From a virus: 64,000 nucleotides of DNA. Where the stretch lies: IMG/VR virus record IMGVR_UViG_3300033182_000991, positions 32,001 to 96,000 of that record. The stretch is one strand, 5' to 3'. Shown piece by piece: positions 2 through 23,740 of the stretch. The translations under genes and the position numbers were made by a program. The notes under the pieces are model-generated. The model was not told the origin of the DNA and did not search any database. It was given only the letters and a program-made list of their open reading frames with translations. The first letter of the stretch is position 1; the number at the start of each line of letters is the position of its first letter.

Positions 2-898
2 TCAGAACCAGGTCCAAAAGGTCTTAAGGGACCTAAGGGTTATAAAGGTAGTCCTGGTACAGATGCTAAGGGACGTAAAGGTGGTCCCGGTGCCAAAGGT
101 ACGAAAGGTCTTAAAGGTTATAAGGGTGATGTAAATACTCAAGCGGGTTCAACGGGTTCAACAGGTCTATATCCAGGTCCGAAGGGACCTAAAGGTTATG
201 CGGGTAAGATTGGACCATCGGGTACAGGTCCTAAGGGTCCGAGAGGTAACCAAGGGGGTGCGGGCTCAAAAGGTTTGAAAGGTTATAAGGGTAATAAGGG
301 ACCTAAAGGGTTCAAAGGTCCTGCATCTTCATGTTATTCGGTAACAATGTTCGGTCCGGCTGGTGACGCAGGTGAAGCTTGTATACCTGAGGAATGGAAT
401 GGTTATTCTGACTGTTCAACTCCGGCTGATGGTTGTAAGGTTTATCAGGTAAGTACCTGTACTTCATGTACATCTTTAACGGGTTTATTCTTAAGTGACG
501 GTGCAGATGTATTTGAAGTAGGACCTAACAGTGACCCTTGTGAATTAGTTTTTGTTCAAGGTTGTGGTCGTTCGGATGTTAGATTGAAGAATAACATTGA
601 GACTCTAACAAATATCACAGAGAGAATTCTTGAGATTGATGTGAAAGAATATGATTGGAATGAGAATTTACCTAACTATCAAGACTTAAAAGATAAAGAT
701 AAGTTACACTCTATCGGTATTATTGCTCAGGAATTGTTACCAATCTTCCCTGAGTTAGTGTATAGAAGAAGTGATGGGTACTACAGTATCTACTACTATA
801 AGTTGAATGCCATATTAATTGAGGCTGTTAAAGAACAGCAAAGAGAGATTGAGTCTATTGACCAAGACATTAAACTATTATCACAAAAATTGAGTTAA
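2..898 (+). CDS. Collagen-like fibre protein (5' truncated) with Cys-rich segment and C-terminal intramolecular chaperone (peptidase S74) domain
   Basis: Frame is open from position 2 with Gly-X-Y codons (SEPGPKGLKGPKGYKG...). It continues into the ORF at 275, then a Cys-rich stretch, then SDVRLKNNI...IGIIAQEL...PELV...LIEAVKE, typical of S74/ICA. Confidence 0.85.
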   Translation, partial: SEPGPKGLKGPKGYKGSPGTDAKGRKGGPGAKGTKGLKGYKGDVNTQAGSTGSTGLYPGPKGPKGYAGKIGPSGTGPKGPRGNQGGAGSKGLKGYKGNKGPKGFKGPASSCYSVTMFGPAGDAGEACIPEEWNGYSDCSTPADGCKVYQVSTCTSCTSLTGLFLSDGADVFEVGPNSDPCELVFVQGCGRSDVRLKNNIETLTNITERILEIDVKEYDWNENLPNYQDLKDKDKLHSIGIIAQELLPIFPELVYRRSDGYYSIYYYKLNAILIEAVKEQQREIESIDQDIKLLSQKLS

Positions 899-2844
899 TG
901 GCGCAGAATGTAATCATATATCCATCGGGTAGTACCAAGAATCCATACCCACACATTGAGTTTTCAGGTGTGAATGGATACTACTATTGGGAAATTAATG
1001 AGGATGGGGTGTTATACTCTTACCAACCTAACATTCCAACGAGTGGTCTGACTATGTATTTTGATGCTGCGGCATATGACTCATATTCAGGTGGTACGTT
1101 ATGGTGGGATTTGACGGGTGGTCGTTATCTAATTGGTGAAGGTGATGGTGTTCAATACGATGGTGTGATGACTGGTGCTACAAAATATAGAAACGTCAAT
1201 CAGTTGATACATACTGAAGCCTCTGCGATTAATGTTAATACAGTTAATGAGTGGTGGTTCTCAGATATTGCTAATGGGTTGGAAGATATTAACTTTAATA
1301 ATGATTATTATGACCAGCTGATTGCGGGAAATTATGATACTATATTTGTAAGACTTTATAAGTCTACTGAACCCGATACTTACTACCAAGTTTATAGTGG
1401 GAGTGGTGCGTCTTTAGTTGCTGGTGATGACCTTAAACTTAATATGGTTCGTATAGATGGTGTTAATAGTTGGGACGGTTCAGACATTTATAATACTCAA
1501 AGAGCAGGGTATCCTGGTTTGAATAACAAAGATTTAGATGGTGTGGTCACTGTTGAATTTATCCCATCAAGGAATGGTAGTGGACTAAGTGCTTCTACAA
1601 CAAATGCCAGTTTGGTTAATGCTCCTTACCACAATCCTATTAATGGTGGTGTATTCAGGTTTGATGCTACCAATGAATACGCAAGAGCCTTAGACCCAAA
1701 CATTCGTGGGGGAAGTATTTCTCGTACTATGATTGGATTCTTCAGTGCGGGTACATCTGAGAATGGATGTATTTTTGGTATTGGTGACCAACCTGAAAAT
1801 AACGGTGGTGCTAACTCATCATGGGAGTTATGGAATTATAATCAATCGTCAGGTGCGGGATTAAGAATCCATACTCAAAGTTTTAATTTTGGTACCAGTC
1901 CTGAATATAGATTGACTGACAATTTAGATAAGTGGTTGATGGCGGTTCTTAGTTATGATACTGATGCTAACGTTGCGTCACTAAAGATTTATGATGATGG
2001 TGTGGTAACCTCAGGTACGAGTAGTAATTCATCTATTGATACTATTACAAATAACTTCTCAGTTAATAAATCTGCATATGGTAGTGAAGGTGGTGGTATG
2101 ACAGGTAATTTTGCGTTAGCCTTATACTATGAAAGAGAAATTTTAGATAGTGAGATAGAACAAATTTATAGAGTATTCTCCCCAAGGTTTGGTGTGACTC
2201 CAGCTATTGTTAAGCCAGGACTTGAAATGTGGTTGGATGCCAAAAATACTAACAGTTATACTGGTGGTACTATATGGCATGACTTAACTGAAAACGGTAA
2301 TGATGGAACTATCAATGGTCCGACCCATACTGACTACTACTTAGACTTTGACGGTACTGACGATTACGTTTCTTTACCAGCACAGACTATGTACCGTTCA
2401 GGTGGTACGATATGTATGTTATTTAACAAAGATGCCGAGAACGGAGGATTGTTATGGGGTGCAAACTATGATAGACATTTATCAACACTATCAAATAATT
2501 TCTATGGTGAAACTGCATCAAACTGTAATAGTTTTAATTCACCAACTTACAGTGCAGGGACAGGTAATTGGGTTCAGTATACATTAGTTTTCACGGGGAA
2601 TAGTGCTTATCACTATATTGATGGTGTTTCCATTGGTGAGACTCCAAATTATGGTTCAATAAACTGTGGAAGTGCCACTACTCAATTAGAGGCTGACTTC
2701 CCATTTAGTAGAATTGGTAATTCAACACAATACGTTGGAAACTTTGATGGTAAGATTTCGGTGGTATTGAAATACGATAGACCATTAACTCAAACTGAAA
2801 TCACTAAAAACTACGATGCATTAAAGCAAAGATACAGTGATTAA
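898..2844 (+). CDS. Virion/tail-associated protein with LamG/concanavalin A-like domains
   Basis: Two copies of the L.M..DA....SY.GG..W.DL motif; FDGTDDYV; C-terminal YDRPLTQTEI..NY motif; lies between fibre genes. Confidence 0.7.
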   Translation: MAQNVIIYPSGSTKNPYPHIEFSGVNGYYYWEINEDGVLYSYQPNIPTSGLTMYFDAAAYDSYSGGTLWWDLTGGRYLIGEGDGVQYDGVMTGATKYRNVNQLIHTEASAINVNTVNEWWFSDIANGLEDINFNNDYYDQLIAGNYDTIFVRLYKSTEPDTYYQVYSGSGASLVAGDDLKLNMVRIDGVNSWDGSDIYNTQRAGYPGLNNKDLDGVVTVEFIPSRNGSGLSASTTNASLVNAPYHNPINGGVFRFDATNEYARALDPNIRGGSISRTMIGFFSAGTSENGCIFGIGDQPENNGGANSSWELWNYNQSSGAGLRIHTQSFNFGTSPEYRLTDNLDKWLMAVLSYDTDANVASLKIYDDGVVTSGTSSNSSIDTITNNFSVNKSAYGSEGGGMTGNFALALYYEREILDSEIEQIYRVFSPRFGVTPAIVKPGLEMWLDAKNTNSYTGGTIWHDLTENGNDGTINGPTHTDYYLDFDGTDDYVSLPAQTMYRSGGTICMLFNKDAENGGLLWGANYDRHLSTLSNNFYGETASNCNSFNSPTYSAGTGNWVQYTLVFTGNSAYHYIDGVSIGETPNYGSINCGSATTQLEADFPFSRIGNSTQYVGNFDGKISVVLKYDRPLTQTEITKNYDALKQRYSD

Positions 2845-2868
2845 ACTATTTATTAAAAGACTTGAATT

Positions 2869-3117
2869 ATGACAAATTATACTTACTTGATAATCAAAAC
2901 GAACGAGGTTGATAAGGTTGATTTCAGCCAAGTCAGAGAGACATCATCTGAAACTTTGAGACATAGTTTGGATGATACAAAGACATTTATTAAGTGGGAT
3001 AATGAAACGCCAACTTTTGTGAATAATTTTGAATGGACGGACGGTCCTTATAATCATACACAAATAATTAATATTTTATCTACGGATGAATGGGTTGATA
3101 CTAATGGGCCGAGTTAA
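2869..3117 (+). CDS. Small conserved phage protein in the fibre cluster (possible chaperone)
   Basis: 82-aa ORF; stop overlaps the next start (taatg). Confidence 0.55.
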   Translation: MTNYTYLIIKTNEVDKVDFSQVRETSSETLRHSLDDTKTFIKWDNETPTFVNNFEWTDGPYNHTQIINILSTDEWVDTNGPS

Positions 3118-6100
3118 TGAAAGCAAGAATATTTCAAATATCTGATTCCGCAAATCCCCTAAAGATTTATGTAATCTCTAAGTTCAATGAAGGATTGGAT
3201 GTGAATTCCAATGCGGTTATTGATGCAAAAGGGCAATGGGTAGGTCCAATCACCAACCTTAAAGGTCTTAAGGGTGAGAAGGGTGATTTGGGTAACAAAG
3301 GTATTAAAGGAACTCAAGGTACCACTGGTGGAGGTGGTGACAAAGGTCTTAAAGGTAATAAGGGTCTTAAGTTCGGTAAGGGTCACAAAGGTTTAATTGG
3401 TGATAAGGGTATCAAAGGTCGTAAAGGTCTTGTTGCCGATAAAGGTCCAACAGGTACAACAGGTACAGGAACAAAAGGTACTCAGGGTCCTGTAGGTGAT
3501 TCAGTTCAAGGTTCTACAGGTCCTACGGGTTCAGCATTTATTGGTCCAACAGGTGGAGGAGGAGACCAAGGTCCACAAGGTGGTCAGGGTTCTACGGGTC
3601 CGACGGGTGCTGCTGGTGATAAAGGACCTAAAGGTGTTAAGGGAGCCAAAGGTAGTAAAGGTATTAAAGGACCAACTGCTGGTAAGGGTTTGAAAGGTGA
3701 TACAGGTTCAACAGGTGCTGGTGGTGATAAGGGATATAAAGGAGCTGCAGGTACAGGTCCTAAGGGTCAGAAAGGTCCTCAGGGTAATTCGCCAATTGGT
3801 GCTAAAGGTCCACAGGGAAGTTCTCCTCGTGGTAACTTTGGTGGTCAAGGAAATCAAGGTGGACAAGGTGGTGTTGGTGACAACAATCCAGGTCCAAAAG
3901 GACCAATAGGTTCAACTAATCAGGGTCCTATTGGTGACCAAGGACCTACATTCCAAGGGTCTACAGGTCTTCAAGGTTCAGGTGGTCCTGGTGGTGACAA
4001 AGGACCTCAGGGTAATGATGGTCCAAAAGGACCTAAAGGATATAAAGGTGGTGTTGGTGCCAAAGGTATTAAAGGTACTAAGGGTTCTACTGGTCCTAAG
4101 GGTCTTAAAGGTAGAAAAGGTAATATTGGTACATCACCAATCGGTCCTCAAGGTCCACAGGGTTCTTCACCATTAGGACCAAGAGGAGGTCAAGGTGCAC
4201 AAGGAGCTGCCAATCCAGGACCTCAAGGTCCAACGGGTTCTTCCTTCCAAGGTTCAGGTGGTGACCAAGGACCGACAGGTCCACAAGGAAACGATGGACC
4301 TAAGGGTATTAAAGGTACCAAAGGTACGAAGGGTCTCAAAGGACGTAAGGGTGTAAAAGGTTACATCGGTGGTTCACCACAAGGTCCTATCGGTCCTCAA
4401 GGAGCATCTCCACAAGGAGGTCAGGGTAATCAGGGACCTCAGGGTGATGCGAATCCAGGCCCAACAGGACCAACAGGTTCTTCATTTACAGGGGACGGTG
4501 GTGACCAAGGTCCAACTGGACCGACAGGGAACGATGGACCGAAGGGTCCAAAAGGTTACAAGGGAACCAAAGGATTAAAAGGACGTAAGGGTGTGAAGGG
4601 TTACATTGGTGCATCACCTCAAGGACCTATTGGTCCACAAGGTGCATCTCCACGTGGTCCACAAGGTGCAAGAGGTGGTACAGGAGCATCCAACCCAGGT
4701 CCTCAGGGTCCGACAGGTCCGTCATTTACAGGTAGTGGTGGTGACCAAGGTCCGGTAGGTCCACAAGGAAACGATGGTCCAAAAGGACCTAAGGGTATCA
4801 AAGGTGGTGCCGGAGCCAAAGGTTATAAAGGTCACAAAGGTTACAGAGGGACATCACCTCAAGGACCTCGTGGTGCAACAGGTGCGTCTCCCCAAGGTGC
4901 ACAGGGTGCAAGAGGTAATACAGGTTCTGCTAATCCTGGTCCAACAGGTCCAGGTGGTTCGGCTAACCCAGGTGCTCAGGGACCTGGTGGTGATAAAGGT
5001 CCGATAGGTAATGATGGGGCTAAGGGTTACAAAGGTACTAAAGGAGCCAAAGGTCATAAGGGATATAAAGGACCTAAAGGTTATGTTGGTAGTTCACCAC
5101 AAGGACCTATTGGTCCACAAGGTGCATCACCACAGGGTCCACAAGGTGGTCAAGGTCCTCAAGGGGCTAATAATCCAGGTCCAAAGGGACCTACAGGACC
5201 GGCGTATCAAGGTCCAATAGGGCCTGGTGGTTCAGGTGGTCCAACAGGTTATGACGGTCCAAAAGGACCTAAGGGTATAAAAGGACCAACTGGTCCTCAG
5301 GGTGATAAAGGTTTCAAAGGAAACATTGGTAATTCACCAAGAGGTCCATTCGGACCAACAGGTGCATCTCCACGAGGACCACAAGGTAACAGAGGTGGAA
5401 CAGGTGCTGGTAATCCTGGTCCTCAGGGTCCAGGTGGTTCTGCATTCCAAGGTAGTGGAGGTGCTCAAGGACCGACAGGACCACAAGGTAACGATGGACC
5501 AAAAGGTCCTAAAGGTTATAAAGGTGGTACTGGTGCCAAAGGATATAAAGGTCATAAGGGATATAGAGGTACTTCACCAACAGGTCCGAGAGGTGCACAA
5601 GGTGTATCCCCACGTGGTAATACAGGTGCACGTGGTGTTACAGGAGCTAATAATCCAGGACCAAAAGGTCCTGTTGGACCAGCATTCCAAGGAGATAAGG
5701 GTTACACTGCTCCTGATGGTGCAAAAGGTTACAAAGGACTCAAGGGTAGAAAAGGCCATAAAGGATATATTGGAGGTTCTCCATTAGGTCCACGTGGTTC
5801 GGCAGGTGCATCACCGAGAGGACCACAAGGTGCGGCTAATCCAGGACCAACAGGTCCAGGAGGTTCGGCCTTCCAAGGTGATAAGGGACCTACAGGTAAT
5901 GCAGGTGCTAAAGGTTACAAAGGACTCAAGGGTAGAAAAGGTCATAAAGGATATATTGGTACATCACCGAGAGGTCCACAAGGTAATCAAGGGGCATCTC
6001 CGAGAGGTAACCAAGGGTCAGCCAATCCAGGTCCGAAGGGACCTAAAGGGTATAGTAATCCTGGTTCAACAGGGCCTACAGGTTATGATGGTCCAAAGGG

Positions 6101-6905
6101 TCCTAAGGGTATTAAAGGGTCTAAGGGACACAAGGGATATATAGGTAATTCTCCTCAAGGTCCGAGAGGTGCCACAGGTGCTTCTCCACGAGGAGGTGGA
6201 GGTGATACAGGACCTGGTGGTTCTAATAATCCAGGACCAAAAGGTTATAAAGGTGCTGCGGGTTATGGTCCTATCGGATTACAAGGTAATAGAGGGGCGA
6301 CAGGTCCACAAGGTTCACCTGGATTAGAACCAGGTGAAGACGGTTCAACAGGTTCAACAGGTTTCCAAGGTCCAGCGAGTAACGCTAAGGGTCCTAAGGG
6401 TCCCAAAGGACCTAAAGGTTACATTGGTAATGCCCCTAAAGGTCCAAGAGGTCCTGCGGGTTCAACGGGTTCATCGGCGGTTGGTGCAAAGGGTCCTATT
6501 GGTTCAACGGGTGCTCAAGGTAACCAAGGTGGTAGAGGACCTCAAGGTGCTAAGGGTTATAGAGGTCCTCAGGGTCCATCATCGGATGAGAGATTAAAGA
6601 CAAACATCAAAGGATTGAAAGGTAACCTTTCTAAGTTGTTGTTATTGAAAGGTCTTTACTTTGATTGGAATGATGATGAGTTTACTACAAATTATCTGAA
6701 TGGTATTAAGGGTACCTCTATTGGTTTCGTTGCGCAGGAGGTTGAAGAAGTATTGCCTGATGTGGTTGAAAGAGACCCTCAAGGTGTGATGGGTGTGGAG
6801 TATGATATTATGTCAGTAATTGCCTTAGGTGCTCTCCAAGAACAACACACGAGAATACTTATGTTAAAGGATAGAATAAACAATTTGAAAGAGTTGGTTG
6901 ACTAA
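3117..6905 (+). CDS. Long collagen-like fibre protein with C-terminal S74 chaperone
   Basis: About 1100 aa of interrupted Gly-X-Y, followed by SDERLKTNI...GFVAQEVEEVLPDVV. Confidence 0.9.
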   Translation: MKARIFQISDSANPLKIYVISKFNEGLDVNSNAVIDAKGQWVGPITNLKGLKGEKGDLGNKGIKGTQGTTGGGGDKGLKGNKGLKFGKGHKGLIGDKGIKGRKGLVADKGPTGTTGTGTKGTQGPVGDSVQGSTGPTGSAFIGPTGGGGDQGPQGGQGSTGPTGAAGDKGPKGVKGAKGSKGIKGPTAGKGLKGDTGSTGAGGDKGYKGAAGTGPKGQKGPQGNSPIGAKGPQGSSPRGNFGGQGNQGGQGGVGDNNPGPKGPIGSTNQGPIGDQGPTFQGSTGLQGSGGPGGDKGPQGNDGPKGPKGYKGGVGAKGIKGTKGSTGPKGLKGRKGNIGTSPIGPQGPQGSSPLGPRGGQGAQGAANPGPQGPTGSSFQGSGGDQGPTGPQGNDGPKGIKGTKGTKGLKGRKGVKGYIGGSPQGPIGPQGASPQGGQGNQGPQGDANPGPTGPTGSSFTGDGGDQGPTGPTGNDGPKGPKGYKGTKGLKGRKGVKGYIGASPQGPIGPQGASPRGPQGARGGTGASNPGPQGPTGPSFTGSGGDQGPVGPQGNDGPKGPKGIKGGAGAKGYKGHKGYRGTSPQGPRGATGASPQGAQGARGNTGSANPGPTGPGGSANPGAQGPGGDKGPIGNDGAKGYKGTKGAKGHKGYKGPKGYVGSSPQGPIGPQGASPQGPQGGQGPQGANNPGPKGPTGPAYQGPIGPGGSGGPTGYDGPKGPKGIKGPTGPQGDKGFKGNIGNSPRGPFGPTGASPRGPQGNRGGTGAGNPGPQGPGGSAFQGSGGAQGPTGPQGNDGPKGPKGYKGGTGAKGYKGHKGYRGTSPTGPRGAQGVSPRGNTGARGVTGANNPGPKGPVGPAFQGDKGYTAPDGAKGYKGLKGRKGHKGYIGGSPLGPRGSAGASPRGPQGAANPGPTGPGGSAFQGDKGPTGNAGAKGYKGLKGRKGHKGYIGTSPRGPQGNQGASPRGNQGSANPGPKGPKGYSNPGSTGPTGYDGPKGPKGIKGSKGHKGYIGNSPQGPRGATGASPRGGGGDTGPGGSNNPGPKGYKGAAGYGPIGLQGNRGATGPQGSPGLEPGEDGSTGSTGFQGPASNAKGPKGPKGPKGYIGNAPKGPRGPAGSTGSSAVGAKGPIGSTGAQGNQGGRGPQGAKGYRGPQGPSSDERLKTNIKGLKGNLSKLLLLKGLYFDWNDDEFTTNYLNGIKGTSIGFVAQEVEEVLPDVVERDPQGVMGVEYDIMSVIALGALQEQHTRILMLKDRINNLKELVD
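4281..5720 (+). repeat. 240-nt (80-aa) coding super-repeat in collagen gene 2
   Basis: The GND/GYD-G codon block recurs at 4281, 4521, 4761, 5001, 5241 and 5481. Confidence 0.9.
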
Positions 6906-9900
6906 TGGCAAAGAACATTAAAATAACACCGAAAAGTGGTATCATTGAATTCTCAGGTGCTACGAGTTCATCAATTGATTTGGGACACAATGAGAGTTCT
7001 GATGAGTTGAAGTTCTCAGGGTCATCATTAGACCCTGTTAGGTTAACGGTTAAAGGTGGTTATACATTCAACTCTGACTCTAAGGTATTGGTTGAAAATA
7101 GTGGTGAGGTTCTATCTAAAGGTCAAAAGAGAATTGATAAAGGTGGTGTATGGCAAGGACCGAGAGCTCAGGATAAGGGTATTAAAGGTTTCAAAGGTAC
7201 TAAAGGACCAAATGCTGTTACTGCTGAAACGGGTGATAAGGGTTACCGTGGTACTCAGGGTACTATTGGTGCCAATCAAGCCGTAGGTACAAGAGGTAAT
7301 CAAGGACCACAAGGAGGTATTGGTTCTCAAGGACAAAAAGGTATTAAAGGACCTGCGGGTGGTGTAGGTTCAACAGCCGACCCATCACCAGCGGGTGATA
7401 AAGGACCTACAGCACCAAAGGGACCTAAAGGTTATAAGGGTACAAAAGGTGCTAAAGGTGGTGCTGGTGACAAAGGTCAGAAAGGTAATATCGGTAATAA
7501 GGGTATTAAAGGTATTGTCGGTACATCTCCGAAAGGTTTTATTGGTCCACAAGGTTCTTCCCCACAAGGTGAGAAAGGACCTCAGGGAGACTCTCCTAAG
7601 GGTATTAAAGGTGTTAAAGGTACTAAGGGTGACCGTGGTGGTTCTGGTACTGGTGGTGATAATAACCCAGGTGCTCAAGGACCTGTCGGTGATTCAGTAC
7701 AAGGTTCAACAGGACCAACTGGTATCTCTGTTCAGGGACCTGCGGGTTCACAGGGTCCAACAGGGCCAGGTGGTGATAAGGGACCTATTGCTCCTGATGG
7801 TGCAAAAGGTTTCAAGGGTATCAAAGGAACTACAGGTGACAAAGGTATAAAAGGTATCAAAGGGGTTAAAGGTGACAAGGGTTACAAAGGACCTAAAGGT
7901 ATTAAAGGACACAAAGGTTTTATTGGTTTATCACCTCAAGGACCAAGAGGTGCCACAGGTGCATCACCTATCGGACCGCAAGGACCACAAGGAGCCTCAC
8001 CAATTGGACCACAGGGTGGTCAGGGTGGACAAGGTAATGCAACACCAGGTCCTGAAGGTGATTTAGGTTCAGCGTTCCAAGGTAGTGGAGGTGCACAAGG
8101 ACCGACAGGACCACAAGGTAATGACGGTCCAAAAGGACCGAAAGGTTATAAAGGGTCTGAAGGATTGAAAGGTCGTAAAGGTATTAAAGGTAATATCGGT
8201 AACTCACCTATTGGTCCACAAGGACCTCAAGGGGCATCCCCTCAAGGTGCTCAGGGTGCAAGAGGTAATACAGGTGCTGCTAATCCAGGTCCTCAGGGAC
8301 CAGGTGGCTCTGCTAATCCTGGTGCTCAAGGACCTGGTGGTGACAAAGGACCGACAGGTAACGATGGAGCAAAAGGTTACAAAGGTACTAAGGGAGCCAA
8401 AGGACACAAAGGTTATAAAGGTAACAAAGGTTTGAGAGGTAATTCTCCTGTGGGTCCACGTGGTGGTACAGGTGCATCACCTCAAGGTGCTCAAGGTAAC
8501 AGAGGTGGTACAGGTGCCCCTAATCCAGGTCCAAAAGGACCTATCGGTGATACAAATCAGGGTTCTACAGGTCCTCAGGGTTCTGGTGGTCCAACGGGTT
8601 ATGATGGACCAAAAGGACCTAAGGGTATCAAAGGTCCTAAAGGGTTGAAAGGACGTAAAGGGGTTAAAGGTTACATCGGAACATCTCCACAAGGACCTAT
8701 TGGTCCACAGGGTGCGTCACCAAGAGGACCACAAGGTGCGAGGGGTGGTCAAGGAGCTGCTAATCCTGGTCCAACGGGACCTACAGGTTCTTCATTTACA
8801 GGTAGTGGAGGTGACCAAGGGCCGGTCGGACCACAAGGTAATGACGGACCAAAGGGACCTAAGGGTTACAAAGGTGCTTTGGGTGCTAAAGGTCTTAAAG
8901 GTAGAAAAGGTAATATCGGTAATTCGCCAAGAGGTCCACAGGGACCACAAGGAGCATCACCACGTGGTAACACAGGTGCTCGTGGTGTGACGGGAGCCAA
9001 CAATCCAGGTCCTCAGGGTCCAGGAGGGTCTTCATTCCAAGGTAGTGGTGGTGCTCAAGGACCTACAGGTCCAGGTGCTGGTGACGGTGCAAAAGGTTAT
9101 AAAGGTATAAAGGGTTCTCTTGGTGCTAAAGGTTATAAAGGTCATAAGGGATATAGAGGAGCTTCTCCTCAGGGTCCTATTGGTCCACAAGGTTCATCAC
9201 CTAAAGGTTATAGAGGTCCACAAGGTGTTCAAGGAGCAACTAATCCAGGTCCTAAAGGTCCTGTGGGTTCAACGAATCAAGGCTCAACGGGTCCACAAGG
9301 TTCAGGTGGACCGACAGGATATGACGGTCCAAAAGGACCTAAGGGTATAAAAGGACCTAAAGGGTTGAAAGGACACAAAGGTTATAAGGGTAACATAGGT
9401 AACTCACCACAAGGACCTATCGGTCCACAAGGGGCGTCACCAAGAGGTAACCAAGGTGCGAGGGGTGGTCAAGGAGCTGCTAATCCTGGTCCTACAGGTC
9501 CTACAGGTTCTGCATTCCAAGGTTCAACAGGACCTCAAGGTCCTACTGGGCCAACTGCGGGCGATGGTGCAAAAGGTTACAAAGGTCTTAAAGGTATAAA
9601 AGGGCATAAAGGTTATACTGGTTCTTCACCACGAGGACCGCAAGGTGCTCAAGGGGCTTCCCCAAGAGGTAATACAGGTGCTGCCAATCCGGGTCCAAAA
9701 GGTCCTAAAGGATATAGTAATCCTGGTGATAAAGGACCTACAGGTAATGATGGTGCAAAAGGTTACAAAGGACTTAAGGGTAGAAAAGGACATAAAGGTT
9801 ACATCGGTAATTCTCCAAGAGGTCCTCAAGGGTCTCAAGGAGCGTCTCCAAGGGGACCGCAGGGTGCTGCCAACCAAGGTGGCACAGGTCCTACAGGTTC

Positions 9901-10840: not shown

Positions 10841-10894
10841 AAATCTATTTTGTTTTTGGGTAATATGATTAACTTTTCTTAAAAAGAACGAGTT

Positions 10895-16061: not shown

Positions 16062-16062
16062 C

Positions 16063-16494: not shown

Positions 16495-17184
16495 CTGTTC
16501 CACACCTGGATTTACGTGAGATACGTAATGCCACTTCCCAACACCTTTAGGTAAATCAAACAATGTCAAAGTGTTGAACTGAGGTACTTCTACTCTTTCA
16601 ACATCCATAGTATCGTGATTCATAAAGTGTAGATTACCACCGTATTGAGGTAACCAATCTTTGGTGAGTTGGTATACAAATCCTGTTGTTCCATTTGGTG
16701 AGTCTACGTGAGGGGAAAGGAAATCGCCAGGTAGATATACGGCAGCAAATACTTCATCAGTTGTAGTGACTGTTGAGTCAATCACTTCATTGATAAATGA
16801 AATAGACTCCTCACCCAACAACCATTGCCTGAGTTCACATTCAAAACAACTACAGGTAGATTGATGGTCGTCAACGGTTCTGTGGAAACAATAGGAGAAG
16901 TCTCCATTACCAAATGCTTTTGTTGCAATTGAATAGTTTTTTCTAATCTCGTCTTCATGTTCAGGTGAGAATATAACTGAGTCGAACCCATCACCTCCGT
17001 TTGATTTTGGATGAGTAGAAACTCTCCACCAATCCCTTGGCATTTCTTCGGTTAAGTAATGGTGTATACGTTCGGCGTATTCATCCTTTAAGAAGTCTTC
17101 AATGACTACTACTCTTTTAGTGATGTACTCCTCTCTGATTGACTGAATATCTAAATCAGGGTTGATGATATCTTTCAAGGTCAT
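16462..17184 (-). CDS. 2OG-Fe(II) oxygenase, Tpa1/OGFOD1-like prolyl hydroxylase family
   Basis: YLPGDFLSPHVD, FVYQLTKDWLPQYGGNL, PQFNTLTLF, HYVSHV, RLTYTGWF. Confidence 0.78.
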   Translation of the reverse strand: MTLKDIINPDLDIQSIREEYITKRVVVIEDFLKDEYAERIHHYLTEEMPRDWWRVSTHPKSNGGDGFDSVIFSPEHEDEIRKNYSIATKAFGNGDFSYCFHRTVDDHQSTCSCFECELRQWLLGEESISFINEVIDSTVTTTDEVFAAVYLPGDFLSPHVDSPNGTTGFVYQLTKDWLPQYGGNLHFMNHDTMDVERVEVPQFNTLTLFDLPKGVGKWHYVSHVNPGVEQLRLTYTGWFK

Positions 17185-17186
17185 AA

Positions 17187-17765
17187 TTAATATTCTGTGT
17201 TGAAGAAAAATACTTGAAATAGTCTTCCATCATTTATATCTCTACCGAAGTAATCTAATGAGATATGGAAATTGTCGGCTCTATACATAACCATTCGATT
17301 AAATAGATTTCCAAACTTATCTACCTGTTCCCATTTGGTAATGTCTTTTGCCGTTTCCATTGGTGAGTTAGGGTCGAACTCATCGTCCTTATGTTCCTCA
17401 TAATTCCAACTCATCAGTCCTGTGTGTTTGTGACGATAAATTCCTGTTCCTGCGGTTACAGGTGCGTCGGGTGTTAGATATAGTACTGCTGCCCAATCAG
17501 TATAAGAGTCTGAGTGAATCCATGAACGGTCTTGGGCGGTCGTATACTGGAATGAACCTGTATATTCACCACCCCAAAAGGTTACCTCACCTGCGATGGG
17601 TCTTAAAATATCTGCTAAACCTTCTTTAATATCTTCATTAAGGTGTGGTTTGGTTCTGAAACCTGGAAAGTTGCCAGTCACGTCAAACTCTTGCTGAAGA
17701 GCAAAGTCTCGTACCTCGTAAGGGTTGCTGTAAAAATCATCAATGATTAATGAATTGACTCTCAT
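17187..17765 (-). CDS. 2OG-Fe(II) oxygenase-like protein (DUF6445-like)
   Basis: IIDDFYSNP..VR, FPG.R, WIHSD, WAAVLYLTP, NRMVMY...FH, RLFQVFF. Confidence 0.7.
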   Translation of the reverse strand: MRVNSLIIDDFYSNPYEVRDFALQQEFDVTGNFPGFRTKPHLNEDIKEGLADILRPIAGEVTFWGGEYTGSFQYTTAQDRSWIHSDSYTDWAAVLYLTPDAPVTAGTGIYRHKHTGLMSWNYEEHKDDEFDPNSPMETAKDITKWEQVDKFGNLFNRMVMYRADNFHISLDYFGRDINDGRLFQVFFFNTEY

Positions 17766-17816
17766 AGTATCTTTTTTGTTAAAGATAAATCAAAAGGATA
17801 TAAAGAAAATATGATT

Positions 17817-18791
17817 TTATAGATAATCTTTGAAGTTGTCATTGATGAATTCTCTTACTCTTCCATCATCTGCCCATTCAGGCCAACTAACACGAATGGA
17901 TTCACCTTCTTCAACTAAGAAATATTCTAATAGACTTTCAAGACTTCCGTAATATTCAAAGTCATTATCACTTTGGTAACCACCCCAATTTAAAACTTTT
18001 TTAACTACTCTTGGTAGTAATTTTGTTACATCAACTTGTGTATAGGTATCATCAACTTCAATTGGTTGATTGGTGCCGGCTTTGTAAGTCTTTCTTTTAT
18101 AAGGGACTTCACGCATGAAGAAGTGTTCCTCAAATAAATTTCTTAGTCCATTCATCACATCGTCATACAACTCATCATAGTAAGCTGATTCCTCAGCATT
18201 TATATGAATAGTTTCTAATTCTTGTAAAACTTCAGGAGCATTTTCTTTGATAAATGATGATAGTTCATCGTCATCCATATTATCAATAAGGTCAAAGGTT
18301 GCAATGTCTTTAACATCATTCACTTCCACTTCTTTACCTTCAACTTCTTGGTAAACGGATTGCTTCAAATAATTAACATTATCGGGAGTAAGCTCTCCAA
18401 TGAAATAGGTAAGGTCATAAATCTGTGAATCTATATCTAAGAAAGGTGTATCATCTTGTAGAATTAACTTAGCTAAACCTTGTGAGTTGTCTCTATCATC
18501 TCTGAAGAATTTTGACAAATCCTCACGGTCAATCCTCATCCAATATTTATTACCATCCATAGTAACATCGTCAAGGTAACCAAGGAGAAATTCAACAACA
18601 AACTTAGGGTCATCCTCGTAGTGAGCGTTCATCACCTCAGTTAAATAACCTTCTTCAATGAGGTGGTCTAACATTTCACCTAACAGATTTTTGGATTTTA
18701 AGAATTTAATAAAAGCATCGGAATCTCCATTGAAATATTTACCGATGAAATCCCCGAGGTCGTTATCTTCTAAGAATTGGATTAAGTCCAT
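17817..18791 (-). CDS. Hypothetical acidic protein
   Basis: 324-aa ORF preceded by GTATTTAT motif. Confidence 0.6.
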   Translation of the reverse strand: MDLIQFLEDNDLGDFIGKYFNGDSDAFIKFLKSKNLLGEMLDHLIEEGYLTEVMNAHYEDDPKFVVEFLLGYLDDVTMDGNKYWMRIDREDLSKFFRDDRDNSQGLAKLILQDDTPFLDIDSQIYDLTYFIGELTPDNVNYLKQSVYQEVEGKEVEVNDVKDIATFDLIDNMDDDELSSFIKENAPEVLQELETIHINAEESAYYDELYDDVMNGLRNLFEEHFFMREVPYKRKTYKAGTNQPIEVDDTYTQVDVTKLLPRVVKKVLNWGGYQSDNDFEYYGSLESLLEYFLVEEGESIRVSWPEWADDGRVREFINDNFKDYL

Positions 18792-18868
18792 TGTTATTGT
18801 TTTATTATAAATACAAAAAAAGGGAGAAATAATTCCTCCCTTTTATTCTGTTTAATTTTTTCTTTCTA

Positions 18869-18994: not shown

Positions 18995-19063
18995 AGTTTT
19001 ATTTTTTTAAGGTGAAAAAGTTTATTTACTAATAAATATATTTGGTTTTAATTATCTGTAAAG

Positions 19064-19699
19064 ATGAACGCAAGTAAAAAATGTAATTTAATATACTGGG
19101 GGACTGCGGGATGTGGTTCTCGTAGTATCGGTAGTTTCATTCAAAGAGTTGGATGTGACGATTTTAAGAACACCGTGTACGACCAACTCATTGCAGTGGA
19201 ATGTTCCCATACTCATAACGTAGGAATACCTGAAGGTTATGAAGATTGTGATATCGTTGCCGTGGTTAGAAACCCATATTCATTATTTGTGAGTAGGTGG
19301 TTTGACGAGTCCAATGACTTTGAATACGAAGAAGTAAGAAATGGATTCAAAGATTTTGTGTATAATAATCCGTTGTGGGATTACTTTGGACAAGGTGATT
19401 TCTTTTTCCTACATCAATGGAAAGAGATTGGTAGGTTTCCCAACCATATTATAAGGATGGAACATATGGAAGAAGACTTAAATAAGGTCAAAGTCCTTAG
19501 AGATATGGAAAAGTTTGATGAAAGTATCGAAACATATGTCACGCAAAATATATTCAAGAACGGTTCTAAGAACGACAGTTACATCGGTGAACATCAGGAT
19601 TATAAGATTTATTGGACAGAAGATATTGCAGACTTCTTTTATGAGAAGATGGAGGAATATTTCACCACCTTCAATTATGATAGAGATTCTTGGAAGTAA
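19064..19699 (+). CDS. Sulfotransferase-family-like protein
   Basis: N-terminal AGCGSRSI (PSB-loop-like), VVRNPYSLFVS, IRMEHMEEDL, FNY near C-terminus. Confidence 0.6.
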   Translation: MNASKKCNLIYWGTAGCGSRSIGSFIQRVGCDDFKNTVYDQLIAVECSHTHNVGIPEGYEDCDIVAVVRNPYSLFVSRWFDESNDFEYEEVRNGFKDFVYNNPLWDYFGQGDFFFLHQWKEIGRFPNHIIRMEHMEEDLNKVKVLRDMEKFDESIETYVTQNIFKNGSKNDSYIGEHQDYKIYWTEDIADFFYEKMEEYFTTFNYDRDSWK

Positions 19700-19724
19700 G
19701 AGTATTTATAGTAAACGATAATGT

Positions 19725-21320
19725 ATGAGTCTTAGTCAGATATTACTTGAGGGGAGAAAAGATGATTTCTTAAATAAGTTTAGGGATAAGTTTACTGGTG
19801 AAGAGTTGAAAGATATCTTCATGTTGTCTCGTGATTTGGCATCCAACCATAAGTTCTTAATGTTCTTAGGTAAGGTGTTGGAAACAGGTAAGGTAGATAT
19901 CAATAAGACCAGAGACCTTATTCAGAACTTCGTGAAATACCAAAAGGTATTACCAACGAAAGACATTTACTTATTTGATAGTCTTCAATCTATTCAAGAT
20001 GAGATTGACCAACACGAAAACAAAGTCAGAAGGCAGGTTAAGGAGTTGGAAGGTGCCGACCAAGTATATGAAGACGACAGGTTCGTTATTGTAACACCAA
20101 AGAATCACAAAACAAGTTGTTATTATGGTGCTGGTACCAAATGGTGTACTGCGTCTATGGATGGTTCTTCACACTTTGACCGTTACAATCAAGACGGTAA
20201 GTTGTTCTACATCATTGATAAGAAAGCCAAATCTCAGGACCGTTTTTACAAAGTTGCATTACTAAACAAATATGATGGTAACCAAACATTCTATGATGCT
20301 CCTGATAAAGCCTTCAATGAAGGTTGGATTTTAGGTTCAGAACAATGGAACAAAATGAATGGTGCTATTCAAGACTACATTCAAAGTAAATTCAAAAGAG
20401 AGATTGATATTTTCAAAGATAAGGAAGCGGCACGTCTTGAGATGGAAAGAATCCGTAGAGAACAACAGGCTGAGAGAACAAGACAAAAACTACAAACTCA
20501 AAGAGAACGTAAAGAAAATGACGAATGGAATCTCAATAACAATCCTGATGAAATGGGTATTCATGCTAATGCCGTATTCAACATACTTGATGATTTGGGT
20601 GTTGAAGTGGGTGAAGGTGAAAGTGTTTATAACTTAGTACCAGCGGACCACGGTCATATGGGTCTAACAACTTTTGAATGGTTGGGTGAAGACGAGCAAG
20701 GAAGAGAGATTGCGGTAGGTGATTGGGACCAAGTGTGGGAAGCGGCAAAAGATTACTACCAAAACGTTTGGGATGAAATGGGTATTGAAGGTTGGAATAG
20801 AGACTTCATTGAATCACACTTAGATACTGATAAGGTTGAGGATTACTTTGAAGAGATATATGAGTCAATGATTGATGACGACCCACAGTCTTATTTTGAC
20901 GAAGATGAATTACCTTTATCTGAAGAACAACAACAAAAGGTTGAGAAACTTAGAGAAGAGATTGAAGAGTTGAATGATATTGTCAATTACTCTGAAGATG
21001 AAGATGAGATTGGTTTTGCCGAAGAAAGAATCCAAGAGATTGAATCAGAGATAGAAGACGAAGAAAACAATCCTGAAGGTGAACCTACAGTAGGTCAGAT
21101 AGAGGACAAAGTTCAAGATATGTTGTATGATGTAAAACAGAACCCTCTTGACTACTTGAATGACTATGGATTTGACATTGGTGGTTTTGTTGATGTTGAC
21201 GAGCTCATTGAAGATTCCCTTAATTACGACGGTGTTGGACCTGCATTATCATCTTATGATGGTGAGGTATATGAATCACTTATAAATGGTGAGTGGTATC
21301 ACGTAGTTATTGTTGAATAA
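19725..21320 (+). CDS. Conserved large-phage hypothetical protein (SCYYGAGTKWC motif, coiled coil, acidic C-terminus)
   Basis: 531-aa ORF; upstream GTATTTAT. Confidence 0.65.
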   Translation: MSLSQILLEGRKDDFLNKFRDKFTGEELKDIFMLSRDLASNHKFLMFLGKVLETGKVDINKTRDLIQNFVKYQKVLPTKDIYLFDSLQSIQDEIDQHENKVRRQVKELEGADQVYEDDRFVIVTPKNHKTSCYYGAGTKWCTASMDGSSHFDRYNQDGKLFYIIDKKAKSQDRFYKVALLNKYDGNQTFYDAPDKAFNEGWILGSEQWNKMNGAIQDYIQSKFKREIDIFKDKEAARLEMERIRREQQAERTRQKLQTQRERKENDEWNLNNNPDEMGIHANAVFNILDDLGVEVGEGESVYNLVPADHGHMGLTTFEWLGEDEQGREIAVGDWDQVWEAAKDYYQNVWDEMGIEGWNRDFIESHLDTDKVEDYFEEIYESMIDDDPQSYFDEDELPLSEEQQQKVEKLREEIEELNDIVNYSEDEDEIGFAEERIQEIESEIEDEENNPEGEPTVGQIEDKVQDMLYDVKQNPLDYLNDYGFDIGGFVDVDELIEDSLNYDGVGPALSSYDGEVYESLINGEWYHVVIVE

Positions 21321-21356
21321 TTCTTCCAATAACTTATATTACTAAAAACTTTACGG

Positions 21357-22100
21357 ATGCAATTAGACTGGATTATTCAAGACCCAATAGATTTCGAGCA
21401 CAAACAATATTTGATTCTCGATTATATAAAGAAGACTGGTGAGAAGTTGGAGAGATTTGAACTCTACCCTGCTTTTCAGGAATTGTCTTTGTTATATAGT
21501 AGTGCTCAGAGAGTTTTGGACCACGGTCAATTCATTACGTTTAAGAGAGAACCTGAGGAAATAGATGATGAAATATTATTTATTGATTTGATATATAATA
21601 CCATTAGATTCAAAGATTCTGAGGAGGGTAACGAAATATTAAAGATTGCGGAATTTGCCACTAAGTCATTCAAGGAATTGTTTATGGTTGCAAAATCTTT
21701 ATGGTCGATTATAAATGACAGTGTTAGTTTAGAAATCACAAACGACTTAAATAGAGCTAAGGGTGGTTGGGGTTACTTTTATTTTGACTATAATGGTGAG
21801 TTATATGTATATGAATATCATATAAAACTTTTGAATCCAAAGGCCCGTGAAAATAAATGTTATATCACAAACATCTATAGAGGTAAAGAGAAAGATATTG
21901 ATGAAATTATCACAGAAAAGGGGTATTTTGGTATTAATGGTGAAAAACCGAATGAACATTTTGGTTTGGAATTTCCGATTTTTAAGATTACATTTGACCA
22001 AACCTTTCCATTGGAAGGGTGTTTACTTTCTTTGAGTAAGAGGAAAGTAATGAATTACATATTTCAATCGATTAAAATAAAAGACCTTAAAATAAATTAA
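21357..22100 (+). CDS. Hypothetical protein
   Basis: 247-aa ORF in a + strand run. Confidence 0.6.
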   Translation: MQLDWIIQDPIDFEHKQYLILDYIKKTGEKLERFELYPAFQELSLLYSSAQRVLDHGQFITFKREPEEIDDEILFIDLIYNTIRFKDSEEGNEILKIAEFATKSFKELFMVAKSLWSIINDSVSLEITNDLNRAKGGWGYFYFDYNGELYVYEYHIKLLNPKARENKCYITNIYRGKEKDIDEIITEKGYFGINGEKPNEHFGLEFPIFKITFDQTFPLEGCLLSLSKRKVMNYIFQSIKIKDLKIN

Positions 22101-22101
22101 G

Positions 22102-22221
22102 ATGGATATTACAACAAAAATTGACACAGAGTACCTTTACCAATTAGTAAAAGAGACACCAAACGATTTAGAGTTAGGTGGAAAAATCAGAGCCTACATT
22201 TATGAAGTCGAAGAAGCCTGA
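22102..22221 (+). CDS. Small hypothetical protein (39 aa, not in ORF track)
   Basis: MDITTKIDTEYLYQLVKETPNDLELGGKIRAYIYEVEEA*; fills the gap between neighbours. Confidence 0.5.
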   Translation: MDITTKIDTEYLYQLVKETPNDLELGGKIRAYIYEVEEA

Positions 22222-22609
22222 TAATGTTGTATGGGACGATAAACTTCAAAAGTATAACGCTTCTTTATTACCTTACTCCACTAATGTTAGTGGGCCAGTC
22301 ATCAAGTTAGATGATGTAGGTGCATTCAAAGAAAGGGGTGTTAACAGAGTTCAAAAGACCTTCAGTGCGAAATATAAAGAATTGGTTGATGAATACAATC
22401 ACCTCATCAGTGAAGTAGAACTGAATGAGATGATTTATAATTCAAATTATTCTTTTGAACCTGTTATTGGTGAAATTTATCATTTGTATATTAGAAATAA
22501 TGGAAAATATTTCTTATCTTTGATATCTCCACGAGAGTGGAATATGGAATACATAACATCAGTAAGACTTAATTCAGAACATAAATGGGTTTCAACAAAA
22601 GATTTCTAA
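22202..22609 (+). CDS. DUF2452-like protein
   Basis: LPY.T...P, FEPVIGEIYHLY, FLSLISP.EW motifs. Confidence 0.65.
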   Translation: MKSKKPDNVVWDDKLQKYNASLLPYSTNVSGPVIKLDDVGAFKERGVNRVQKTFSAKYKELVDEYNHLISEVELNEMIYNSNYSFEPVIGEIYHLYIRNNGKYFLSLISPREWNMEYITSVRLNSEHKWVSTKDF

Positions 22610-22770
22610 ACAAAGAGGTAATCCTTAGGACCGAAGAAAAATTCTTGGACGATTTATTCAGTGCAGATGCTTTCATCATGGACGAATGGTCAGAAAAGTT
22701 TATGAAGCTTCACGAAGATGGATTAGATAAACTTCAAATTATTGGAATGTTAGATGATGGAGAAAATTAA
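22585..22770 (+). CDS. Hypothetical protein
   Basis: 61-aa ORF overlapping both neighbours. Confidence 0.5.
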   Translation: MGFNKRFLNKEVILRTEEKFLDDLFSADAFIMDEWSEKFMKLHEDGLDKLQIIGMLDDGEN

Positions 22771-23740
22771 TTTTTCCGACTCTTCATTATACCACCCAAA
22801 AGGTATATTGAGGAAACCTATCAACATTGAAATCACTGACGATGTAATCTCAGTGGTTTTAGCTGGTGGTTTGGGTAACATGATGTTCCAAATATCCACC
22901 ATCTTATCTTACGCCAAAGATAATAATCTACGACCTCTTATTGGTTATTGGACCACACACCAATCAGAAAGTTCCCGATGGTCAAAGAGGTTGAATCGTT
23001 ATGCGAGGAATCATCACTTTGAACCGTGGGGTGGACACATCTTACAAGACAGACCAGTTTCGTTGGGTGAGGTATACCCAAAGTTACCGTGGTTTAACGA
23101 TAGACCAAACGCATTTGAGTGGTGGTTCAATCAAGACTTTGCGTATGAATTAGATACTGGTAAGTCTGGGTTGTTTGTGGATATTGGTAAGGATTTGACT
23201 CCACCATTTTTAGTTCAGGGTTACTTCTTCAACTACAGATTTTGGCACCACAACAGAGACTATATCTTGGATATGTTTACATTGGATGAGGAACTAAGGG
23301 ATTGGATGTACTACCACTATGGTAACCTTTTCCAAGAAAAGACAATCTCAGTACACTTACGATTAGGTAATGATACAGACTTTATGCCTGTTGAGAAGGT
23401 TCCAATGAAATGGGTGATAGATAAAATTGAGTCATTAGTTGAAGGTAAAGATGACAATGTATTAATTTTTTCAGATAATTTACCTGCTGCAAAAAAAATG
23501 TTGTATCTTAACTGTGATGTTCGTCGTTCACAATTACATTTCATTGAGGATGACCCTTACATTTGTATGGAGTTGATGTCACGATGTGAAAAACACATAT
23601 TATCCAATTCAACCTTATCTTTTTGGGGTGCATATATGGATAGAAATGAAAACAATCCCGAGACTTATATACACGAGTCTTTCTTCAAGGAACACCCAAT
23701 TGAGATGATTCCTTATGACAACTGGAAAATAGAAGAATAA
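22754..23740 (+). CDS. Alpha-1,2-fucosyltransferase (GT11)
   Basis: GGLGNMMFQ, VQGYF, SVHLRLGND, IFSDN, MSRCEKHILSNSTLSFWGAY. Confidence 0.85.
   Translation: MMEKINFSDSSLYHPKGILRKPINIEITDDVISVVLAGGLGNMMFQISTILSYAKDNNLRPLIGYWTTHQSESSRWSKRLNRYARNHHFEPWGGHILQDRPVSLGEVYPKLPWFNDRPNAFEWWFNQDFAYELDTGKSGLFVDIGKDLTPPFLVQGYFFNYRFWHHNRDYILDMFTLDEELRDWMYYHYGNLFQEKTISVHLRLGNDTDFMPVEKVPMKWVIDKIESLVEGKDDNVLIFSDNLPAAKKMLYLNCDVRRSQLHFIEDDPYICMELMSRCEKHILSNSTLSFWGAYMDRNENNPETYIHESFFKEHPIEMIPYDNWKIEE

Follow-up and report, generated by a model that had tools for sequence, protein, structure and literature searches.

Hydroxylysine-linked glycosylation of collagen has been described, in the literature that we searched, only for animals and mimivirus. 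Mimivirus uses L230 (a lysyl hydroxylase and hydroxylysine glucosyltransferase), R699 (a galactosyl-hydroxylysine glucosyltransferase) and L593 (a prolyl hydroxylase), which act on its own collagens, L71 among others (PMC9546862, citing Luther et al. 2011). According to a 2022 review (PMC8968730), most collagens of prokaryotes are unmodified and those of phages are short; the role of the abundant viral prolyl 4-hydroxylase (P4H) genes 'remains cryptic' (PMC9301287), and our literature search found no published description of PLOD-type systems in phages. Here we analyze a window of 64,000 nucleotides (nt), bases 32001-96000 of the 112,919-nt IMG/VR viral contig IMGVR_UViG_3300033182_000991 (CheckV completeness 38%), together with the rest of that contig. 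At its left end lie three collagen-like fibre genes, which we have named colA, colB and colC, followed by oxygenases and sugar-modifying enzymes. The explanation that we favour, and hold to be likely, is a fibre module in which collagens matured by S74 domains would be hydroxylated and glycosylated on lysine, with a trio of adjacent oxygenases adding further hydroxylations.

The source is an uncultured jumbo phage of ~300 kb from marine-type samples, judging from a complete 297-kb relative (IMGVR_UViG_3300048121_001678, hereafter G012) that is collinear with the whole contig. The entire collagen/enzyme block is syntenic in G012 and in a second close relative, the 42-kb contig G001. A third record, WLWG01000005.1 (303,974 nt, of which 20.7 kb were covered, recovered by a metagenome scan), carries oxygenase and GT_PLOD proteins 98% identical to those of this phage, and its locus matches contig 1170-3200 with 94.5-96% nucleotide identity at the expected offset. 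When the enzyme block was compared by megablast with 50,697 phage records, no match and no close cultured relative turned up, and PHROGs returned almost no matches among the neighbouring large genes. All the genes listed in the first-pass annotation of this DNA were present where it had placed them. The fibre genes are given below, in window coordinates unless the contig is named:

contig 28735-32898, plus strand: colA, first collagen-like fibre gene, 1387 amino acids (aa), cut by the window edge
2..898, plus strand: 3' end of colA, last 298 codons, with the final collagen runs, a Cys-rich non-collagen domain of ~85 aa and S74; predicted cleavage Ser at window 572
3117..6905, plus strand: colB, collagen-like fibre, 1262 aa; S74 at 6582-6767, predicted cleavage Ser1156
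6905..10840, plus strand: colC, collagen-like fibre, 1311 aa; S74 at 10502-10690, predicted cleavage Ser1200

All three proteins matched Pfam Collagen (PF01391) above cut-off, with E-values from 4e-9 to 3e-50, and all three end in Peptidase_S74 (PF13884; E 3e-13, 2e-12 and 6e-16; 50.4, 47.5 and 59 bits against a cut-off of 22), as the annotation had read them. Each S74 domain opens with an intact Ser-Lys dyad, S-D-x-R-L-K (SDVRLK at Ser1280 in colA, SDERLK at Ser1156 in colB and SDRRLK at Ser1200 in colC); the spacing S-D-x-R-x-K is that of the catalytic dyad in endosialidases. By analogy with the family, the domains would cleave themselves off at this conserved Ser. In each protein a non-collagen N-terminus is followed by the Gly-X-Y triplets, 225-249 in number. 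They form interrupted runs, none longer than 22 triplets, and GPK, GPQ, GYK and GPT are the commonest. Per chain, 57-59 Pro occupy X and 1-3 occupy Y, while 92-94 Lys are found in Y and 0-1 in X, in agreement with the earlier statement that Pro lies mostly in X and Lys among the Y residues. In colB and colC the collagen extends right up to the predicted cleavage Ser, while in colA the Cys-rich domain stands between them. The position of S74, abutting the C-terminal end of the triple-helix region, supports the idea, put forward in the annotation, that it acts like a C-propeptide.

Two further features of the chains were observed. The Cys-rich domain (8 Cys in ~85 residues, colA ~1195-1279) is found in colA only and may be a distal tip that remains on the mature fibre. 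Besides, the collagen runs of all three chains share a super-repeat of ~80 residues: 14 triplets, a break, 4 triplets and a break. Regarding other fibres, the S74 domains of endosialidase K1F and the T5 L-shaped fibre resemble those described here in C-terminal position, Pfam match and S-D-x-R-x-K dyad, but they follow a beta-helix or triple beta-helix stalk, whereas those of colB and colC come directly after a long collagen region. BclA of the Bacillus exosporium, a glycosylated bacterial collagen-like protein, likewise forms surface filaments with GPT triplets, and the phage fibres possibly carry O-glycans too. The glycans of BclA are Thr-linked rhamnose/anthrose made by other enzymes, and the main predicted attachment site in the phage fibres is hydroxylysine.

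The annotation had proposed that the phage builds hydroxylated, glycosylated fibres, and it very probably does. The best evidence lies outside the interval that was annotated, in a glycosyltransferase (GT) gene upstream of colA and in a gene for a lysyl hydroxylase (LH) domain in the relatives. Two kinds of gene come first:

contig 17996-20074 (L010:997-3075), 8.7 kb upstream of colA and 12-14 kb before the window start: GT_PLOD protein of LH3/R699 type, 692 aa
L140:9290-11248, L130:9299-11275, L137:9269-11155, L147:4160-6016, L131 and L132, in other phages: GT25-GT_PLOD-LH fusions

The GT_PLOD protein aligned with human LH3/PLOD3 over its GT and accessory domains (E 8.6e-51) and with mimivirus R699 (E 4.7e-33), and it contains Pfam GT_PLOD (PF25342) with an E-value of 9.5e-64. 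Its D95-S-Y-D98, C127-W128-P129 and H439 (H-x-NGP) are invariant in 27 GT_PLOD homologues and align to the DSYD, CWP and HgNGP motifs of LH3; in LH3, DSYD and the His are Mn ligands and the Trp of CWP belongs to the acceptor site. The protein ends at the accessory domain (aligned LH3 chain residues 186-491), without a fused LH domain, and a ~210-residue insert between its GT halves gave sub-threshold methyltransferase matches. By homology it is a true LH3/PLOD3-type collagen glycosyltransferase, predicted to transfer glucose to (galactosyl-)hydroxylysine. We also observed relatives of 920-937 aa that carry an extra C-terminal GT25 domain.

With hidden Markov models built in this analysis, we found in G012 a stand-alone LH-domain protein of 219 aa (78,776-79,432), which matches the LH domain of LH3 with an E-value of 1.6e-29 and mimivirus L230 with 4e-25. 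The LH gene of WLWG01000005.1 (E 6e-28 to LH3) is located ~9 kb upstream of the stretch that matches contig 1170-3200. Since the collinearity between the contig and G012 reaches only ~70.6 kb of G012, the LH genes of G012 fall just beyond the 5' end of the contig, and synteny places the lysyl hydroxylase of this phage most probably ~8 kb beyond that end. In both relatives the LH-domain genes are stand-alone tandem paralogues (L548:8777-9433 in G012 and L580:9272-10660 in WLWG01000005.1); their neighbours are replication/repair-type genes (primase-like, metallophosphatase, SbcC-like), with the fibre genes far off. G012 also has a stand-alone GT25 (COLGALT-family) gene at 236.6 kb.

In other phages, single proteins of 580-660 aa fuse GT25, GT_PLOD and an LH-like domain beside collagens rich in Y-position Lys. 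The L140 fusion, for instance, matched the COLGALT1 catalytic domain (E 5e-23), the GT of LH3 (7e-45) and the LH domain of L230 (2e-9). Collagens linked to GT_PLOD have Lys in a fraction of 0.15-0.85 of Y positions in nearly all loci, and this phage, G012, G015 and G016, which have GT_PLOD, show values of 0.38-0.49. GT_PLOD is missing from the complete relative G014, whose three S74 collagens carry Gln/Thr in Y and zero Lys. As a side observation, LH-like-domain open reading frames (ORFs) of 580-760 aa with no GT_PLOD match were located downstream of a collagen gene and a PF13640 oxygenase (L052:11828-13645, L054:7852-9588 and L032:7662-9908); they are probably LH domains fused to another type of glycosyltransferase.

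One could argue that the collagens are left unmodified, that the LH3-like GT and the LH relatives act on another Lys protein or a small acceptor, and that Y-position Lys stabilises the helix by charge pairs. Most prokaryotic collagens are indeed unmodified (PMC8968730), and GT_PLOD is 8.7 kb away from colA with unrelated genes between. This alternative is nevertheless very improbable in our view: GT_PLOD and LH domains adjoin specifically Y-Lys-rich collagens on many unrelated phage contigs, the related jumbo phage without GT_PLOD is the one with Lys-free collagens, and L230 and R699, the homologues in mimivirus, have collagen as their substrate (PMC9546862).

As in mimivirus, a virus encodes collagen-like proteins together with LH-domain and PLOD-type GT enzymes for them; its GT_PLOD protein is close to R699 (E ~5e-33), and the LH gene of the relatives to the LH domain of L230 (E about 1e-24). 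The phage system differs in that the host is a bacterium and not an amoeba, the enzymes are in separate genes with LH stand-alone, and the GT retains an LH3-like accessory domain and has a methyltransferase-like insert. Besides, its substrates would be S74-terminated fibre precursors, with three more oxygenase families and several sugar-decorating enzymes alongside. Compared with the animal PLOD1-3/LH3 and COLGALT1/2 enzymes (PDB 6fxk, 8zgc), the implied chemistries, Lys to hydroxylysine to Gal to Glc, are alike. As in animal procollagen, Lys is confined to Y, the GT metal-binding motif is conserved, and a C-terminal trimerising domain is removed after folding (a removal predicted here for S74). 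Unlike animals, the phage has no endoplasmic reticulum and no lysyl oxidase was seen; its LH, GT and GT25 modules are not linked to one another, and other phages fuse them in different orders; and its trimerising domain is a self-cleaving S74 chaperone by family, in place of a C-propeptide cut by BMP1-type proteases.

Adjacent to the fibre genes are three putative 2-oxoglutarate (2OG)-Fe(II) oxygenases:

15453..16061, plus strand: PF13640 (PKHD/PiuC-type) 2OG-Fe(II) oxygenase, 202 aa; E 1e-14; H123/D125/H179/R189
16462..17184, minus strand: single-domain Tpa1/OGFOD1-like 2OG oxygenase, 240 aa; PF13661 E 8e-12; H159/D161/H219/R232
17187..17765, minus strand: DUF6445 protein with a predicted 2OG-oxygenase fold, 192 aa; H84/D86/H167/R181

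To relate these and other enzyme families to collagens, IMG/VR was baited with an alignment of each family and the surrounding 10 kb on each side of every match was inspected, with baits dereplicated at 80% identity. An ORF was counted as a collagen gene when it had 20 or more Gly-X-Y triplets, taken from runs of 8 or more. Locus length and GC content were alike across bait sets, and the carbamoyltransferase encoded beside the trio served as control. The clusters with a collagen gene were:

GT_PLOD bait: 18/25 clusters, 72%, Fisher p 1e-8 against the carbamoyltransferase
PF13640 oxygenase bait: 38/66 clusters, 58%, p 2e-8
DUF6445 bait: 15/41 clusters, 37%, p 7e-4
Tpa1-like oxygenase bait: 12/36 clusters, 33%, p 2e-3
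GT17 bait: 6/54 clusters, 11%, p 0.46
carbamoyltransferase bait (control): 2/40 clusters, 5%

Counted by locus, 34 of the 47 GT_PLOD matches had a collagen gene within 10 kb. The annotation had suggested that the enzymes should co-occur with collagens; this was found for the three oxygenase families, not for GT17 or the carbamoyltransferase. In a reverse control with 80 S74-baited loci, 21 had collagens, mostly Pro- and Lys-poor, and 2 of these 21 carried any of the enzymes; among the 59 non-collagen S74 fibre loci, none did, which indicates that the oxygenases are not generic fibre-adjacent cargo. As the three families are significantly linked to phage collagen genes, the trio most likely hydroxylates the fibres.

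Regarding the PF13640 family, at least 16 loci have its gene at a distance of 48-110 nt from a collagen gene of the same orientation. One well-supported clade (25 rows) pairs mainly with collagens that have Pro in Y, and other members are mixed, with Y-Lys or X-Pro types. The members of this clade are candidate phage prolyl 4-hydroxylases, P4H-like by the company they keep. Members at L042, L050, L051, L055, L079 and L084, among others, lie 48-90 nt from collagens rich in Asn at X, in which Pro is confined to Y (0.12-0.39). We looked for one residue that could be the target of the whole family and found none; only the Y-Pro clade is clean.

The Tpa1-like enzyme matched PF13661 with 46 bits against a cut-off of 27, and its AlphaFold2 (AF2) model (pLDDT 94.7) gave 3kt1 and 4nhy (Tpa1/OGFOD1) as top Foldseek matches, with E-values from 6e-10 to 1e-8. 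The HxD...H...R residues are invariant. The enzyme is without the second C-terminal double-stranded beta-helix-like domain (Ofd1_CTDD E 0.0096, below cut-off). Every collagen near Tpa1-like homologues has X-Pro of at least 0.2, and distant homologues located 2-655 nt from collagens are paired with X-Pro of 0.38-0.69, Lys and Y-Pro being near zero. The enzyme probably hydroxylates X-position Pro of the fibres, as the annotation had supposed; fold and composition fit this role without proving it. Tpa1, OGFOD1 and Ofd1, which are ribosomal-protein prolyl 3-hydroxylases, are its nearest folds and share PF13661 and HxD...H...R, but the phage enzyme is a single domain of 240 aa, and its genomic partners are X-Pro-rich collagens and not translation genes. 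The DUF6445 AF2 model (pLDDT 90.7) also shows a 2OG-oxygenase fold with an invariant HxD...H...R. DUF6445 is paired with a PF13640 gene in 40 of 80 loci. The collagens with which it pairs are of various types, and many have a high Gln content in Y.

The first-pass annotation had assigned Y-position Lys to another of the three oxygenases. None of them turned out to be a close LH homologue. PDB searches with the 15453-16061 and 16462-17184 proteins returned PiuC/PKHD and PolD/PasI, not LH; the phage LH-like-domain profile matched the PF13640 family at superfamily level only (98.4%, E 1e-14) and gave no match to the Tpa1-like or DUF6445 oxygenases. Because stand-alone LH genes are present in near-identical and complete relatives, the lysyl hydroxylase is probably none of the three. 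The PF13640 enzyme was rejected as a candidate on account of this likeness at superfamily level only and of the true LH in relatives. Moreover, at Y-Lys collagen loci of other phages a PF13640 homologue and a separate LH-domain protein stand side by side, so that the family would be an additional collagen partner and not the LH. The Tpa1-like enzyme had been considered since G014 is without it as well as without GT_PLOD and Y-Lys; the candidate was dropped given that its distant homologues pair with Lys-free, X-Pro-rich collagens and that relatives have a true LH gene.

The adjacent trio probably also acts on the fibres, in our reading of gene neighbourhoods. Rather unlikely, in comparison, is a trio that works off collagen, on host or phage translation factors, ribosomal proteins, nucleic acids or small molecules. 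Marine phages encode many 2OG oxygenases that have found no explanation, and such a trio would be in keeping with them. Tpa1 and OGFOD1 hydroxylate prolines of ribosomal proteins, bacterial PPHD likewise acts on translation factors or ribosomal proteins, PiuC/PKHD have non-collagen roles, and mid-distance Tpa1-like homologues (31-44% identity, including giant-virus bins) occur without collagen nearby. Besides, the contig has at least five such oxygenases, two of them outside the collagen locus:

window 53134..53724, plus strand: further PF13640 2OG oxygenase, 196 aa
contig 107449-108006 (L011:12450-13004), minus strand: further PF13640 2OG oxygenase

On the other hand, all three families of the trio are 7- to 12-fold enriched near collagens over the control, the PF13640 genes are closely spaced with co-directional collagens, one of their clades goes with Y-Pro collagens, and none of the enzymes was found beside the 59 non-collagen S74 fibre genes.

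The remaining enzymes of the block are those that could decorate sugars:

10895..11944, plus strand: GT-B fucosyltransferase-like protein, 349 aa, 55 nt downstream of colC on the same strand
11937..13592, minus strand: double GT17 glycosyltransferase, 551 aa; two GT17 stretches, E 1e-41, 143 bits
13589..15388, minus strand: NodU/CmcH-type O-carbamoyltransferase, 599 aa; Carbam_trans_C 232 bits and Carbam_trans_N 137 bits (E 5e-69 and 1e-39)
19064..19699, plus strand: weak sulfotransferase-like protein, 211 aa, with GCGSR and RNPYS motifs
22754..23740, plus strand: GT11 (alpha-1,2-fucosyltransferase family), 328 aa; 36.3 bits against a cut-off of 23.9

The enzyme identities given in the annotation held for GT17, the carbamoyltransferase and GT11, whose Pfam matches all exceed the cut-off, and for the three 2OG oxygenases, while the fucosyltransferase-like and sulfotransferase-like matches are weak and below cut-off. 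The former gave Pfam XG_FTase with E 0.007 and 15.4 bits against a cut-off of 23.4; its look-alikes in the language-model Atlas were NodZ/FUT8/O-FucT, with scores of 0.94-0.97, and its HxR motif (VHLR) is present in this phage and lost in G012. The latter gave Sulfotransfer_1 with E 0.018 and 14.9 bits against a cut-off of 22; in a PDB profile search 7 of 8 matches were sulfotransferases, but weak ones (E 0.2-0.6), and its GCGSR and RNPYS resemble the 5'-PSB and 3'-PB motifs. Structure prediction, which the annotation had recommended, supported the folds of DUF6445 and of the 16462-17184 enzyme.

Any role of GT17, the carbamoyltransferase, GT11 and the fucosyltransferase-like and sulfotransferase-like proteins in fibre decoration is conjecture, and for GT17 and the carbamoyltransferase, which the annotation had cast as fibre decorators, co-occurrence does not support it: neither family showed collagen linkage beyond background. 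It is a real possibility, though somewhat short of an even chance, that only the lysine pathway (LH, GT25 and GT_PLOD) serves the collagens and that these five are unrelated cargo. They would then glycosylate other virion proteins, or else build or alter a polysaccharide such as a host surface glycan or lipopolysaccharide (a role suggested for the 'Nol' clusters of cyanophages), and their adjacency to the fibres would reflect shared descent only. Collagen within 10 kb at 3 of 80 carbamoyltransferase loci and 6 of 80 GT17 loci agrees with this; the nearest phage carbamoyltransferases are pelagiphage and cyanophage 'Nol-like' genes, and GT17 relatives are mostly in giant-virus bins and in large phages without collagens. 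A tie to the fibres is suggested instead by the fucosyltransferase-like gene, so close behind colC on the same strand; by GT17, which stays beside collagens and oxygenases in G001, G012, L329, L331 and L337; by collagen-linked DUF6445, which co-occurs with GT17 (16/80) and the carbamoyltransferase (12/80); and by homologues of the sulfotransferase-like protein, which adjoin GT25-GT_PLOD-LH fusion genes in L137 and L142.

In the fibre module that we favour, colA-C would be made as precursors. Their S74 chaperones would bring the chains together as trimers where the Gly-X-Y region ends, on its C-terminal side, before releasing themselves by cleavage at the conserved Ser. Before folding, the ~93 Y-position Lys of each chain would be hydroxylated by the stand-alone LH-domain lysyl hydroxylase. 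The hydroxylysine would then be glycosylated, with the first sugar probably coming from a GT25 galactosyltransferase (an enzyme with a gene of its own in the complete relative and part of a fusion protein in many other phages) and with the LH3/R699-type enzyme encoded upstream of colA as the glycosyltransferase. The three adjacent 2OG oxygenases most likely add further hydroxylations, the Tpa1-like one probably on X-Pro, and as a conjecture the five other enzymes may extend or cap the glycans. A fuller joint reading would have three collagen chains bearing methylated Glc-Gal-hydroxylysine, X-Pro hydroxylated by the Tpa1-like enzyme, PKHD-type and DUF6445 hydroxylations, and glycans extended with fucose/GlcNAc and capped by carbamoyl and sulfate. 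Nothing else known in the bacterial world would be so close in its chemistry to the extracellular matrix of animals as such fibres, and the 'cryptic' 2OG-oxygenase/P4H auxiliary genes of marine viromes would largely serve virion-fibre maturation and not metabolism. Taken as a whole, we regard this fuller version as unlikely.

Several observations speak against the fibre module or parts of it. No LH-domain gene is found on the 113-kb contig, its presence in this phage resting on synteny with the relatives, and no GT25 gene is found there either. That the block is syntenic in G001 and G012 would follow from common descent, and it is hardly informative as to function. The bait clusters are not phylogenetically independent, and the p-values are thus indicative only. 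Y-position Lys and X-position Pro also stabilise unmodified bacterial collagens, which favours fibres left unmodified. In G012 the carbamoyltransferase is elsewhere, ~230 kb from the block, and GT11 is missing from its position in the block, as would be expected of unrelated cargo. Collagens linked to PF13640 vary widely (Y-Pro, Y-Lys, X-Pro), and no one target residue fits them. In the closest outgroup phages, PF13640/DUF6445 pair with the carbamoyltransferase and GT17 and no collagen is found on contigs of 24-111 kb; in the complete G014, that enzyme cluster is ~110-150 kb from its collagens, which are Lys-free and Pro-poor. With the outgroup cluster so far from collagens, the oxygenases may have other or additional substrates, in line with a trio working off collagen.

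The other genes of the locus and contig that we grouped with these stretches are:

898..2844, plus strand: LamG protein, 648 aa, with a C-terminal Laminin_G_3/ConA-like lectin domain, in the fibre operon
2869..3117, plus strand: 82-aa ORF, kept beside the LamG protein in relatives and in L033/L035
16063..16494, plus strand: 143-aa ORF, conserved between oxygenases in several lineages
17817..18791, minus strand: 324-aa conserved protein, 74-78% identity in most relatives and 39% in one
19725..22609, plus strand: three conserved genes (531 aa, 247 aa and a DUF2452 protein), syntenic in relatives
contig 22160-24688, 25817-26944, 27266-27583 and 13292-14248: genes grouped with the stretch between the GT_PLOD gene and the fibres

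One co-directional series, in which neighbouring genes overlap or are separated by no more than 55 nt, is formed by colA, the LamG gene, the 82-codon ORF, colB, colC and the fucosyltransferase-like gene. Homologues of the LamG protein are found near collagens in L033 and L035, and it is a probable fibre tip or adhesin partner. For the 324-aa protein no family was found, and ESM Atlas and PDB searches were empty. Between the GT_PLOD gene and the fibres we observed an 842-aa TonB-dependent-receptor Plug protein, a glutamine-synthetase-like protein, a thioredoxin and a full DnaJ. Promoter-like and terminator-like sites that might delimit transcription units were no commoner than in shuffles. The Bacteroidota-type promoter-like motif TTTG-N(18-22)-TAnnTTTG gave 12 matches in the window against 2.7 expected, one of them at 28666-28697; few fall within 1-24,000, and they fail to delimit the transcription units of the cluster. 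Outside this phage, very long (G-T/S-S)n repeat ORFs in L035, L080, L183, L203, L385 and L387 also score as collagen-like, several of them near DUF6445/PF13640 genes, and may be a different kind of Gly-Thr-Ser fibre.

According to these results, a pathway of animals and mimivirus appears, both as separate genes and as fusions, in bacterial phages, and across many uncultured marine phages it goes with fibres that have Lys in Y. This gives a testable role for viral 2OG oxygenase/'P4H' genes and a likely substrate class for DUF6445 and the Tpa1-like family. Enzymes of this kind, working in the bacterial cytoplasm, could be put to use in E. coli for the production of recombinant collagens that are hydroxylated and glycosylated. 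For the phages themselves, modified fibres could affect the host recognition, stability and stickiness of large marine phages.

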